Source: Candidatus Bathyarchaeia archaeon
GTDB taxonomy: Archaea; Thermoproteota; Bathyarchaeia; Bathyarchaeales; Bathycorpusculaceae
Assembly: GCA_050010515.1 (NCBI GenBank)
Contig: JBEKKX010000019.1
Location: 1-43,952, forward strand
Direction: 5' to 3'
Length of the DNA stretch: 43,952 nucleotides
This document shows positions 3,966 through 8,633 of this stretch, piece after piece (the stretch's first letter is position 1; every line of letters begins with the position of its first letter). The notes beneath the pieces are model-generated. The model was not told the DNA's origin. It worked only from the letters and a program-made list of their open reading frames with translations, and made no database searches. The translations under genes and the position numbers were made by a program.

Positions 3966-4268
3966 ACGTTCTCAGCTTACTGCGCTATTTTTCAAGATTA
4001 GTTTTAAAGATGCGCTTTATTTATGTTACCTATCAAAACATCTTGTCTCGCTCAAAAAATGCGTGCTACTCTGCATCAATTGTTAACTCTTAAGCTTAAT
4101 CAAATCATCCCCGTAACACCTCTGAAGCATTGAATACTTTTTCTCGGACATTTACCGCACAAGCAATAAGTAGTGTGAAACCAAACTTTGAGAGTGAAAC
4201 CAATTGGCTCTAATTCTGAGAAACTAATAAATTAATCTCTACCGTAACTGAATGTCGGGGTATCAAAT

Positions 4269-5561
4269 TTGGTTACTGAAAAAGTAACGCATTTTCACGG
4301 ATGCCAAGTGGCAACCACTAATTCAGTGAAACAGCACAAACTGAGGAAGCTCATAGCGTGGCTATCAGACAAAGAGGGAAGGGGAATGGAGTTCATCTCG
4401 CTCTATATACCTCGGGAGAAATCAATAGATGAGATAGTCGCAAACCTCAAGTGTGAGTCTGATTCTGTTGCCATGAAATCTGAGAACGCTAGGGACGTTA
4501 GGGATCGCCTTCAAGACGCCCTTAAGAATGTGATCCAGCGTCTAAAGCTGCAGAAGGAAATTCCAGAGAATGGGCTTGCGATATTTGCTGGAACTTTCGT
4601 CGCGAACGAGGCGGAAAGCGAAGTTTTACACGTCGAAGAACTCGTCCCACCAGAACCGATTACCGCCTATCTTTACGAGGTTGACGACCATTTCCGGTTA
4701 GAGCCGCTAAGGGAAATGCTGAGAGACCAAAGAGTTGTGGGGCTCGTCGCCATGGATTCAAAGGAGGCTAGCTTCGGGATACTCAACGGTGAACGCCTCG
4801 AATTAATCGAAAATATCACGTCGGGGATTCCAGGAAAGACTGTGAAGGGCGGGCAGAGCCAAAGGAGGTACGAAAGAGAACGCGACATGGAAGTCACATA
4901 CTTTTTCCACAGGGTTGCGGAGCATGCAACAAAGGCATTTCTCGAGAACCATAAAGTTACGGCGTTGATAGTTGGAGGGCCGGGCCAAACGAAACAGGAT
5001 TTCTTAAAGGGTGATTACCTTCATTATGAGCTAAAGAATGCGCTTCTGAGCATAGTTGATACGCAATCCGCCGGCAGAGAAGCGGTGAAAGAGGTGCTTG
5101 GCAAATCATTTGAGACACTGAAGAATATGTGTGCGCCAGAGGAGAAGATGATCGTGCAGCGCCTTCTGGCAGATATGGGCAAACAAGACGGTTTGGCTAT
5201 TTACGGACTAGATTCAGTGTTGAACGCGCTTAAGAATGGTGAAGTGGAAGTCGCACTGGTGACAGATAATACAGATATGATTGAAATTGTTGTAATGTGT
5301 AAAAGATGCGAACTATCAAGGGCGAAGATAGTGGATAAGGAAAAGAAGGTTCAAACTGTACAGGAAATGATATCGAGCCCATGCGAGAAGTGCAGCGCGG
5401 TTGAATACGAGGTGGAGGAGAAGGACATAATAGATGTCTTAGAGGATGTGGCTTCACAGACAGACGCAAGGGTTGAGGTGATATCTACAGAGTCGGAAGA
5501 AAAAGCAAAGCTTACAGCTTTGGGAGGCTTTGCCGCTCTCTTGAGATACAGACCTGGATAA
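4269..5561 (+). CDS. peptide chain release factor aRF1/eRF1 family, divergent paralog
   Basis: GGQS motif (GKTVKGGQSQRRYER), ISLYIP, PENGLAIF, VGGPG, CxxC...CxxC minidomain, C-terminal GGFAALLRY. Confidence 0.92.
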   Translation: MVTEKVTHFHGCQVATTNSVKQHKLRKLIAWLSDKEGRGMEFISLYIPREKSIDEIVANLKCESDSVAMKSENARDVRDRLQDALKNVIQRLKLQKEIPENGLAIFAGTFVANEAESEVLHVEELVPPEPITAYLYEVDDHFRLEPLREMLRDQRVVGLVAMDSKEASFGILNGERLELIENITSGIPGKTVKGGQSQRRYERERDMEVTYFFHRVAEHATKAFLENHKVTALIVGGPGQTKQDFLKGDYLHYELKNALLSIVDTQSAGREAVKEVLGKSFETLKNMCAPEEKMIVQRLLADMGKQDGLAIYGLDSVLNALKNGEVEVALVTDNTDMIEIVVMCKRCELSRAKIVDKEKKVQTVQEMISSPCEKCSAVEYEVEEKDIIDVLEDVASQTDARVEVISTESEEKAKLTALGGFAALLRYRPG

Positions 5562-6674: not shown

Positions 6675-6901
6675 CTATTTCACCTCCTTCAATTTTTGAG
6701 GGGCGCGCCTCGTTTAAAGCTCAATAGCCGTATCTGCATCGTAGTCAATTTACCTGACGCTTAGAGATCCTGTTAAAAGTAGCAAACTCCGTTTCTTGGG
6801 GGCTGAATATAGCATATGTCAAAAGTGAAAATTAAGTCTATTCCTAACAATATTAATGGACCTTTAGGAGCAGTCCTTCGCTAAGCTTTAATGTTAAGTA
6901 G

Positions 6902-6915
6902 TTATACATGTATAA
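6902..6915. promoter_or_regulatory. perfect palindrome TTATACATGTATAA, probable toxin-antitoxin autorepression operator
   Basis: 14-bp palindrome ending 2 nt before the antitoxin ATG. Confidence 0.6.
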
Positions 6916-6917
6916 TC

Positions 6918-7124
6918 ATGAACGTAAAGGCGAAAGTTAAGTGTTGGGGGAATTCGCTGGGTATTGTGCTGCCGAAAAAATTGGTCGAGGAAGAAGGGCT
7001 CAAGGAAGGAGAAGAAGTCGAAGTAACAGTAAGAAAAGTGTCTGATGTGCGTAGTCTTAGAGGCAAATATCCTTTCAAGGACCTGCAGCATGAGAAAGAC
7101 GAAATGAAACGCGGCTGGGAATGA
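6918..7124 (+). CDS. vapB: AbrB/MazE-family antitoxin
   Basis: KCWGNSLGIVLPK...EGLKEGEEVEV AbrB fold; directly upstream of a PIN gene. Confidence 0.88.
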   Translation: MNVKAKVKCWGNSLGIVLPKKLVEEEGLKEGEEVEVTVRKVSDVRSLRGKYPFKDLQHEKDEMKRGWE

Positions 7125-7125
7125 T

Positions 7126-7509
7126 TTGCGGAAAACTACAAGGTTCTTCTATGATAGCTATGCTGTTCTGGCATACCTTAGTGATAACCCAAGATACAGG
7201 TCTTTCTTTGAAGAAAATGACGGTTTTTTAACGAGGCTCAATTTACTGGAAATATATTACCGTACTCTTGAGGTTCACGGAGCGAAAGCCGCCTCTCAAG
7301 TAGTTAAAGTGTTTGCCAAATATGTTATGGACTTTGGAGTAGCTGACATTGAAGGTTCACTGAAACTTCGGTTGAAGCTAAAGAAAAATGGCCGCGACAT
7401 ATCTTACGCTGATGCCCTTGGATACTTTCTTGCACTAAAGTCTAACGTGAAATTTCTGACTGGAGATATATTGTTCAAAGGATTAGAAGGCGTTGAATTC
7501 GTCGTCTAA
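7126..7509 (+). CDS. vapC: PIN-domain toxin
   Basis: FYDSYA, LEIYY, SYADA and LTGD acidic PIN motifs. Confidence 0.88.
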   Translation: MRKTTRFFYDSYAVLAYLSDNPRYRSFFEENDGFLTRLNLLEIYYRTLEVHGAKAASQVVKVFAKYVMDFGVADIEGSLKLRLKLKKNGRDISYADALGYFLALKSNVKFLTGDILFKGLEGVEFVV

Positions 7510-7610: not shown

Positions 7611-8633
7611 ATGAAATCAGCTATTTTCATGAATGGCAGAAAGTTTGATGAATCAGAATTCAGTTCTGAAGAAGAGTTTGAGAAGATAGTGAAAGAACAC
7701 TTCAAGACTCTTTTTGGAGCAAAAACTGTTTACTTCGACATCAAAAGCAAGATTGGCTCTAAAACTTTGGGGTCTGCCATTCCAGATGGCTTCTTGCTTG
7801 ATTTCAAGGATGAAGAAAGTCCAGATTTTTATCTTGTAGAAGTAGAACTTCAAAAACATGACTTCTACAGGCATATCTTTCCGCAGATCACAAAGTTTTT
7901 CGCATTTTTCAATAACTCCGTAAGCAGGAACAGACTAGTTGAAAGACTATTTTCTTACGTAAAATCAAATTCAGAGTTGGAACAAGAGTTCAAGAAATAT
8001 CTTGGTTACAAAGAAATTTACAAAGCGCTAAAAGACATCATTGAAAACAGCCAAAACATACTACTAGTAATAGACGATAACAAGCCAGAGATGCAGGAAG
8101 TGTTTGAAACTTACACTGACACTTGGGACAAAATGGTAAAGGTAGAGATTCTAAAACAGTACACGGCAGACGAGAAAACAATATTCACCATGAACCCCGA
8201 TTTTGAGGAAATTGATTTCCCAGAGAAACCTCCATCTGAAGAAGACACAACTCCAGATGTTCCAGAGAACAGAACAAATGAGCCTCCCAAGGATATTAAC
8301 GAAGATATAATGAGCGCTTACAACAAAATTAAAACAGCAATGACGATTCTTAACCCCAAAATAATAACAAACCCGACAAAAGCATACGTGTCATTCAAAT
8401 TCAACCGTAACTTTGCATATATGCTAATCAAAAAGGCAAAGATGCACATTGTGATAATGCTACCCTACGCTGTTGGAAGTAGCTTAATTCACAAACACAG
8501 GCTACATCAACTCTCGGAAAGGGTTCAGAAATTTTGGAATGGCCCATGCTTTCAAGTGACTTTAGATAATTCTGATAATATAGAGGAAATTATTACAGCG
8601 CTTAAAGAGGCTTACAAAAAACAAATCTCATAA
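7611..8633 (+). CDS. putative PD-(D/E)xK-like nuclease with DUF5655-like C-terminal domain
   Basis: E-x-E-F-E helix, IPDGFLLD...YLVEVEL core, acidic linker, C-terminal KAYVSFK...FAY...FW domain. Confidence 0.6.
   Translation: MKSAIFMNGRKFDESEFSSEEEFEKIVKEHFKTLFGAKTVYFDIKSKIGSKTLGSAIPDGFLLDFKDEESPDFYLVEVELQKHDFYRHIFPQITKFFAFFNNSVSRNRLVERLFSYVKSNSELEQEFKKYLGYKEIYKALKDIIENSQNILLVIDDNKPEMQEVFETYTDTWDKMVKVEILKQYTADEKTIFTMNPDFEEIDFPEKPPSEEDTTPDVPENRTNEPPKDINEDIMSAYNKIKTAMTILNPKIITNPTKAYVSFKFNRNFAYMLIKKAKMHIVIMLPYAVGSSLIHKHRLHQLSERVQKFWNGPCFQVTLDNSDNIEEIITALKEAYKKQIS

Follow-up and report, generated by a model that had tools for sequence, protein, structure and literature searches.

An aRF1 paralog clade of Bathyarchaeia that lacks the stop-reading elements: candidates for a codon-independent A-site factor

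What might a second archaeal release factor do if it has lost the means to read stop codons? This question is posed by an open reading frame (ORF) at positions 4269..5561 (+ strand) of a 43,952-nucleotide stretch of DNA, contig JBEKKX010000019.1 of assembly GCA_050010515.1, from a Candidatus Bathyarchaeia archaeon; the whole of this stretch is called the window below. The ORF runs from a TTG start to a TAA stop and encodes a 430-residue paralog of the release factor aRF1 (PAR, here simply the paralog). A preliminary description of the locus had proposed that this is a second, accessory aRF1, that its GTS, NIKS and YxCxxxF motifs are altered with GGQ, the Zn minidomain and the C-terminal tail retained, and that it is either codon-independent or shifted in codon specificity. 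The conservation patterns presented here are best explained, in our view, if the paralog is a third A-site factor of the aRF1/pelota family that would derive from a Nitrososphaerota-type aRF1.

Membership in the aRF1/eRF1 superfamily is established by the domains, the family model and the fold. The protein matches Pfam eRF1_1, eRF1_2 and eRF1_3 with E-values of 7e-13, 1e-34 and 5e-18 and scores 375 bits against TIGR03676 (NCBIfam aRF1), for which the cut-off is 234.7. An AlphaFold2 model, built from a 93-row alignment, has a mean predicted local distance difference test score (pLDDT) of 84.9, and its top Foldseek matches are aRF1 4af1 and eRF1 chains, with Balon and pelota ranking lower. When compared with canonical aRF1 (TIGR03676; 4af1, 3agk, 3vmf), the paralog is the same in its three-domain fold, its GG-loop region, its Zn minidomain and its C-tail. 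It differs in lacking the elements with which a class-1 release factor reads stops, namely the Thr of the GTS loop, NIKS and the Cys of YxCxxxF, in the third residue of the GG loop, which is Q, S or E within the clade, and in an extra conserved N-terminal extension. Nor is it the single, vertically inherited aRF1 of its organism; it appears to be a foreign second copy beside the host's own. The host assembly (66 contigs, 2.38 Mb, 98.5% complete, G+C content 0.426) carries a canonical aRF1 on contig C54, with TASNIKS, YRCDSRF and GGQ, which is 38% identical to the paralog. It also encodes pelota (contig C44), one aEF1A above cut-off and one NFACT-R (Rqc2/NEMF-type) protein. The accessory status that had been proposed for the paralog is thus confirmed, and the possibility that it might be the only aRF1 of the genome falls away.

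The loss of the stop-reading elements was assessed by comparing 86 distinct paralogs with 116 canonical aRF1s, 81 of them from Nitrososphaerota and 35 from Bathyarchaeia. The N domain of the window copy (residues 17-150; 4317..4718, + strand, as for all features of the gene) is recognized by Pfam eRF1_1 and has the eRF1 N fold (Foldseek match 2llx, TMt 0.85, root-mean-square deviation 2.7). Within it, the equivalent of the GTS loop reads GRGMEF (residues 37-42; 4377..4394), with M40 replacing the canonical Thr. The equivalent of the NIKS loop consists of VAMKS (67-71) and ENARDVR (72-78), together at 4467..4502; alignment to the genome's own aRF1 and to the 116 canonical sequences places VAMKS where these have ASNIKS and locates a three-residue insertion inside ENARDVR. 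The equivalent of YxCxxxF is YEVDDHF (136-142; 4674..4694), in which V138 replaces the Cys. All three motifs are therefore altered in the window copy as had been described, and the motif map shows that the same holds for the clade. The Cys is present in none of the 86 paralogs and in all 116 canonical proteins, the Thr in 7 paralogs and again in all 116, and an in-register NIK in no paralog (five have an off-register NIK string) and in 114 of the 116. With these elements absent from the clade, or in the case of the Thr rare in it, and near-universal in canonical aRF1s, their loss cannot be attributed to chance.

The manner of the loss is informative as well. The region corresponding to residues 64-78, which includes the NIKS loop, exists in 80 versions among the 86 paralogs, ranging in length from 6 to 15 residues, as compared with 27 versions in the 116 canonical aRF1s, every one of which is 13 residues long. 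The tip of this region is hypervariable, with high entropy at all three codon positions. Over the N domain as a whole, 39 positions are at least 95% conserved in canonical aRF1s, and of these the paralogs keep 10 and lose 14. Two segments, YEVD[D/N]HF and E[F/L]ISLY, are fairly conserved among the paralogs. The variability of the NIKS region suggests that the decoding head is not merely altered but unconstrained across the clade. Of the two alternatives in the preliminary description, it favours codon independence and speaks against a shifted specificity, because the NIKS region takes so many forms and lengths. The canonical aRF1s of the genus (L002, L026-L045) show a change of their own in the GTS-loop region, where they read G[S/N]HTEL and the other families of the order read GRGTEL; this genus-wide change adjoins the conserved Thr.

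The conservation of the remainder of the protein is quite different. The M domain (residues 151-288; 4719..5132; Pfam eRF1_2, 120 bits) is the best-conserved part of the paralog, and of 32 positions at least 95% conserved in canonical aRF1s the clade keeps 27 and loses 4. GGQ is encoded by GGC GGG CAG (residues 194-196; 4848..4856) within the loop KGG[Q/S]SQRRYERE. G194, G195 and the flanking residues K-GG-x-SQRRYERE are invariant in all 86 paralogs, and one residue of this stretch, Q198, is rare (4%) in the canonical sets. The third residue of GGQ is Ser in 52 paralogs, Gln in 33 and Glu in 1. The earlier statement that GGQ is intact is therefore correct for the window gene and incorrect for the clade, more than half of which has GGS, and the weight that had been placed on GGQ is unsupported. 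On the paralog tree at least 4 changes are needed to account for the distribution of Q and S, and when the tree is rooted on Nitrososphaerota the basal clades are all Q. The GGQ of the window copy belongs to a small Q group ("KTVKGGQ") that is nested among S forms ("KSGKGGS"), one of which (from G075) is 92% identical to the window's Q-type paralog. Each Q/S switch requires two base changes (CAR to TCR), and the accompanying Thr/Val changes point to recombination over a short tract or to selection acting on the loop as a whole. In genomes with two paralogs in which both copies could be read, the copies are of the same type in 7 of 7 cases, and none has a Q and S pair. Judging from these alignments, the Gln side chain is evidently dispensable in the paralog clade.

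The C domain (residues 289-430; 5133..5558; Pfam eRF1_3) retains 10 of 18 positions that are at least 95% conserved in canonical aRF1s and loses 2. Its Zn minidomain, a CxxC...CxxC arrangement formed by C344, C347, C372 and C375 (5298..5393), and its C-terminal tail GGFAALLRY (residues 419-427; 5523..5549) were identified by alignment, in agreement with the preliminary description; across the 86 paralogs these Cys residues and the tail show little or no variation. A prediction of the complex between the paralog and the genome's aEF1A gave, in a run without controls, a score of 0.00, which is evidence neither for nor against binding.

Is this gene maintained by selection? The ratio of nonsynonymous to synonymous substitution rates (dN/dS) was estimated by the Nei-Gojobori method for 17 paralogs and the canonical copies of the same genomes, using the 41 pairs with dS of at most 2. 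Over the whole gene dN/dS lies between 0.10 and 0.20 for the paralog in all 41 pairs, compared with 0.03-0.08 for the canonical copy. By domain the paralog's values are 0.05-0.31 (N), 0.05-0.21 (M) and 0.06-0.28 (C), the M domain being the lowest of the three. Although its dN is 2-6 times that of the canonical copy, the paralog is clearly constrained; it is under purifying selection and is not decaying.

The constraint includes a paralog-specific N-terminal extension (residues 1-16; 4269..4316) with the pattern HF..CQ.AT, in which F9 is found in 93% and C12 in 99% of the 86 paralogs and to which no residues of canonical aRF1s correspond. The entropies at its three codon positions (0.77/0.60/1.22) have the periodicity of coding sequence, and 79 of 85 sequences have TTG, ATG or GTG at the aligned start position. 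Since the extension is coding and the start codon is kept, we prefer the 430-residue reading to the 417-residue gene call of the database. The model is of low confidence here, with pLDDT below 50 at residues 1-14.

Among 872 long host ORFs the stops are TAA in 484, TGA in 195 and TAG in 193; the stop of the paralog genes is TAA in 52 cases, TAG in 17 and TGA in 17. A changed genetic code is rejected on these grounds. For pyrrolysine (Pyl), neither PylS (N- or C-terminal domain) nor PylB nor PylD is above cut-off in the 98.5% complete host genome, and a link of the paralog to Pyl is rejected for this reason; an Aragorn run without intron search found no suppressor-type or CTA-anticodon tRNA in the same genome. 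That run listed only 37 tRNAs; two have "anticodons" of four bases (ataa, ccgg), which are probably intron artefacts. Given the canonical aRF1, the use of all three stops and the lack of Pyl genes above cut-off, the paralog is an additional factor in an organism that uses the standard code.

A search with the paralog found a copy of 53-93% identity in 76 of the genus's 120 species genomes. Eight genus genomes have two paralog-level matches, which may be redundancy within metagenome-assembled genomes (MAGs). Among 401 sampled Bathyarchaeia genomes there are paralog-level matches in 30, of which 28 belong to the window's family (four genera); the other two come from a single genus in a second family, with one of these copies broken by two stops, and no paralog-level match was found in the remaining families of this sample. 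None was found outside the window's family in 401 genomes sampled across the phylum. Broken copies occur, one (G009:C280:1244-2492) with two in-frame TAG codons and another (G472:C6:51807-52967) with TGA and TAA, and several further copies end early, at about residue 310-337. In five genomes the aRF1 model detects the paralog only, which might imply that the paralog serves as the sole release factor. This was rejected, because in the three of them that are more than 90% complete the gene adjoining canonical aRF1 is missing as well, and we read the absence of the canonical gene as an assembly gap and not as replacement. A query with the second flank gave no match in any genome and is uninformative. 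This pair of genes is missing from three fairly complete relatives, and the region seems to be hard to assemble; in the host genome (G000) the canonical aRF1 (start of C54) and its usual neighbour (start of C4) both lie at contig ends.

A priori, the paralog could have arisen by duplication of the host's own aRF1 or could have been acquired. The nearest non-self representatives among 1.84 billion proteins are aRF1s with canonical motifs, 45-50% identical to the paralog as against 38% for the host's own aRF1, and many carry inteins; one of these clusters is named Nitrososphaerota, and the relatives of the representative P0124 among species genomes are Nitrososphaerales/Thaumarchaeota MAGs. In a 96-row tree 17 paralogs form one clade (SH-aLRT support 100) with a long stem (0.77); together with these nearest representatives they fall in a starred clade of 25 rows, and the genus's 21 canonical copies nest among aRF1s from other families of the order. 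In a 111-row tree with named sequences, 28 paralogs fall with Nitrososphaerales aRF1s in a starred clade of 41 rows, itself part of a Nitrososphaerota clade of 78 rows (100); the Bathyarchaeia clade (98) is separate. Forcing the paralogs together with the Bathyarchaeia aRF1s costs 71.4 log-likelihood units, and a joint origin of the paralog and the host's own aRF1 is rejected (approximately unbiased test, p 0.011), with the caveats that these are quick trees, that the tested group was named after the tree had been seen and that the long stem (0.76-0.77) invites long-branch artefacts. The paralog is best read as a xenolog from Nitrososphaerota and not as a local duplicate. The aRF1s of this apparent donor lineage share ..DDHF.LEPLREMLR.. 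and the ..LRYR tail with the paralog. They differ from it in having Cys, Thr and GGQ in 81 of 81 sequences and NIK in 79, the other two (L110 and L123, one labelled Ca. Methylarchaceae) reading YIKS with Cys, Thr and GGQ present. Many of the Nitrososphaerota-type proteins (P0121-P0134) also carry one or two inteins at key motifs, immediately before the Cys of YxCxxxF and immediately after GGQ.

The trees and the motif map suggest the following history and mechanism. An ancestor of this Bathyarchaeia family would have acquired a Nitrososphaerota-type aRF1 sideways, and the acquired copy would then have lost every stop-reading element, keeping the M domain, the GG loop, the Zn minidomain and the C-tail. 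Expressed from a promoter of its own, the protein would depend for delivery to the ribosome on the only aEF1A of the cell, aEF1A being the factor that delivers both aRF1 and pelota (Saito 2010, Kobayashi 2010/2012, cited in PMC10901736). It would enter the A site without reading a stop, for example on ribosomes that are stalled, on truncated mRNA or otherwise unproductive, and its GG[Q/S] loop would reach into the peptidyl-transferase centre (PTC) and free the nascent chain, leaving the ribosome recyclable. A dismantled head, next to a frozen M domain and GG loop and a C domain of which most is retained, fits a factor that still enters the A site and reaches the PTC without demanding a stop. 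We favour this reading, a codon-independent A-site factor that carries out peptide release or rescue on 70S ribosomes, with a probability of about 0.4. A functional analogy, and only that, is provided by ArfB/ICT1, PrfH and mtRF1, in which the catalytic loop is kept and codon reading is lost or changed and which serve in rescue or at unusual signals (PMC6514570, PMC3418547); these have the unrelated bacterial release-factor fold, and the catalytic ones keep the Gln, unlike the paralogs with Ser or Glu.

Several observations weigh against this proposal. The Gln of GGQ is otherwise universal in catalytic release factors, and yet it is replaced by Ser or Glu in 53 of the 86 paralogs; a Ser form may still hydrolyse, as work on mutants of bacterial release factors reportedly suggests. 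The N domain remains under purifying selection (0.05-0.31) and has its own conserved residues and extension; since it is so constrained, it must do something specific that the model does not explain. Of the 44 genus genomes in which the paralog was not found, 40 have only the canonical match at about 38% and 4 have no match, and because 44 of 120 genomes show none at this level the gene is dispensable. No neighbouring gene is conserved across 21 paralog loci. As to expression, one small soil metatranscriptome yielded a single 170-nucleotide contig with 2 differences, which is a hint only and may represent DNA carry-over.

The first of these objections leads to the main rival explanation, which we consider possible although doubtful: that the paralog occupies the A site and PTC, with or without aEF1A, and does not hydrolyse. 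It might park on ribosomes, protect them, help to split them or compete with aRF1 or tRNA, in the manner of Balon (hibernation), of pelota (splitting) or of an inactive regulator such as the second Methanosarcina aRF1. The presence of GGS or GGE in most of the clade, together with the repeated flips between Q and S, means that the Gln side chain is not required. Precedents exist as well. The bacterial hibernation factors Balon and Rv2629 are derived from aeRF1, and Balon, which has neither NIKS nor GGQ, binds EF-Tu and the A site whatever the mRNA (PMC10901736); moreover, aRF1 can sit on the 50S subunit by its M and C domains alone (PMC10516650). Balon is among the structural matches of the paralog (E about 1e-18). 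Pelota/Dom34 is likewise an A-site factor of the aRF1 family with homologous M and C domains, which works without stop reading and is delivered by aEF1A. However, both families have lost the whole GGQ loop, Balon having an HP motif and a beta-hairpin insertion and pelota an Sm-like N domain, whereas the paralog has an eRF1-type N fold (2llx) and keeps the GG and 10 flanking residues invariant, in an M domain that is its most constrained part. Nor do the family models bring it close to either: it scores 37.9 bits against the Balon/Rv2629 family NF052289 (cut-off 320) and 77.8 against the pelota model TIGR00111 (cut-off 177.65), the latter match being confined to the M and C domains.

A related explanation, which strikes us as unlikely, is that the paralog would release chains from large subunits once the ribosome has been split, as the archaeal equivalent of Vms1/ANKZF1, binding 50S-peptidyl-tRNA through its M and C domains after the action of pelota and ABCE1. 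The uneven retention of canonical positions (M 27 of 32, C 10 of 18, N only 10 of 39) fits such a protein, the host genome encodes an Rqc2/NEMF-type protein, and in a structure of Sulfolobus aRF1 on the 50S subunit only the M and C domains are ordered (PMC10516650). The M domain also matches the Pfam baeRF and acVLRF1 models PF18854 (47.5 bits) and PF18859 (44.4 bits), but these matches are much weaker than that of eRF1_2 over the same stretch (120.2 bits), and the VLRF1 model NF041024 yields 39.7 bits against a cut-off of 125. This explanation also leaves the constraint on the N domain (dN/dS 0.05-0.31) and the conserved extension unaccounted for, and the aEF1A-binding tail, which is kept, would be unneeded on a free 50S subunit.

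We give little credence to a third explanation, a release factor with changed codon specificity, whose target would be one of the sense codons, a single stop placed in a particular context or some rare signal. Vertebrate mtRF1 turned out to be a factor of this kind. In the paralog the three specificity-setting elements are exactly those that are altered, with the GG loop and tail kept, and the fair conservation of YEVD[D/N]HF and E[F/L]ISLY in the clade could reflect such a role. A reading head should be conserved, however, and the tip with its 80 versions of 6 to 15 residues, variable at every codon position, is the opposite; in addition, the host uses all three stops and has neither Pyl genes above cut-off nor, by Aragorn without intron search, a suppressor-type tRNA. 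Finally, a functionless duplicate in decay, an alternative raised in the preliminary description, is very improbable, for although dN is 2-6 times canonical, 44 of 120 genus genomes lack the gene at this level and the G009 and G472 copies are broken, dN/dS is 0.10-0.20 in every pair, there are 86 distinct intact ORFs down to 52% identity with the window copy, the loop, Zn Cys residues and tail are invariant, and the extension is coding and conserved behind a conserved start codon.

The surroundings of the gene are subclade-specific and consist of housekeeping genes: among the 21 loci there are contexts with a fumarate-lyase gene, with a tRNA-intron endonuclease and an IF-2B-family gene, and with MarC. 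A TATA-like box, AATAAATTAAT (4226..4236, + strand), lies about 35-45 nucleotides upstream of the start and may act as the promoter, and an A/T-rich "ATAAAT" block is found at a matching distance in many of the 21 loci. The Shine-Dalgarno-like GGGGT (4257..4261, + strand), 8 nucleotides upstream of the TTG, would serve in initiation, and most of the loci have GGTG or AGGTG at the equivalent position. In the upstream region of one locus (L021, from G021) an apparent tRNA 3' end (GGTTCAATTCCC...CGCCA) occurs about 90 nucleotides before the paralog and could be an integration site.

Three proposals of the preliminary description concerned this neighbourhood, and none was sustained. The region had been called island-like; the gene has a G+C content of 0.45-0.48, as compared with 0.426 genome-wide, its surroundings are unremarkable in composition, the window neighbours are housekeeping genes and no tRNA is adjacent. 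The direct repeat GTGAAACCAA (4175-4184 and 4194-4203, + strand), thought to indicate dedicated regulation, has only these two exact copies in the window; there is one copy in the closest relative (L010) and none in 19 other upstream regions, so that the pair is a local feature and not part of the conserved gene. A link to a VapC RNase had also been suggested. The window contains a PIN-like ORF (7126-7509) that scores 21.7 bits, below the Pfam cut-off of 23.6, next to a MazE/AbrB-like ORF (6891-7124), and a PIN homologue is found near the paralog in 2 of the 21 loci. Neither the paralog nor the PIN/MazE pair has a PADLOC match, and membership of the paralog in a defence system is rejected on that basis. 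Right after this pair a DUF5655 protein (7611-8633, +) matches the PADLOC candidate family PDC-S18 (E 1.5e-10). Upstream of the paralog, a fumarase/aspartase-type class-II lyase gene (1085-2515, +) has a G+C content of about 0.55, as against 0.426, and may be foreign; in 3 of the 21 loci the paralog has such a gene as its upstream neighbour.

How unusual is such a protein? Methanosarcina aRF1-2 is likewise an extra copy, with no known function, beside an omnipotent aRF1. It is described as a lineage-specific duplication in Pyl-using methanogens, in contrast to the apparent xenolog described here, whose host has no Pyl genes above cut-off; the two were compared by description only. One of the two Methanosarcina copies is reportedly inactive. 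The other, in M. barkeri, reads all three stops in vitro, according to PMC12626013, which also gives 4.3% (n = 81) as the share of sampled archaeal genomes with two aRF1 copies and does not discuss motifs. NIKS, YxCxxxF and GGQ are described as universal in a/eRF1 except for ciliates and a Cys to Thr variant in some Crenarchaeota (PMC2613156). Searches of the literature on aRF1 paralogs, pyrrolysine, Bathyarchaeia, rescue and baeRF1/aeRF1/VLRF1 brought up no description of the present clade, with the proviso that the two-copy genome table of PMC12626013 may list these Bathyarchaeia. Other odd aRF1-like proteins are present in metagenomes (P0203, P0242, P0252, P0139, P0172, P0179, P0157); one clade of these is without NIKS and mostly without the Cys, others have NIKS with GGW or GGF, and P0157, labelled bacterial, has no clean NIKS and reads GGE. 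Divergent paralogs of aRF1 may be more common than published accounts indicate.

Release-factor paralogs have been recruited repeatedly to ribosome rescue, a process that has been framed as shaped by conflicts (PMC6514570). In this light one may entertain, as a long shot, the combined idea that the paralog is the core of an undescribed archaeal rescue pathway, a counterpart of PrfH or ArfB, which would rescue ribosomes that have been blocked by ribotoxins, or by factors of viruses or competitors directed against the A site or the normal aRF1, and that the fast-diversifying tip and the toggling between Gln and Ser are the pattern that an arms race would leave.

No tmRNA, ArfA or ArfB is known from archaea, and the one known archaeal route for stalled ribosomes, through pelota and ABCE1, does not in itself set the nascent chain free. 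A widespread, selected and apparently stop-blind aRF1 derivative, with an arm that should reach the PTC, is a candidate for this missing releasing activity. If the paralog does not release peptides, it becomes a candidate archaeal A-site hibernation or regulatory factor. In either case the natural GGQ/GGS polymorphism, with Q and S forms that are 92% identical, offers a ready-made experiment on the role of the universal Gln. The probable origin of the gene in Nitrososphaerota would mean, further, that a core translation factor can move between archaeal classes and persist beside the resident copy.

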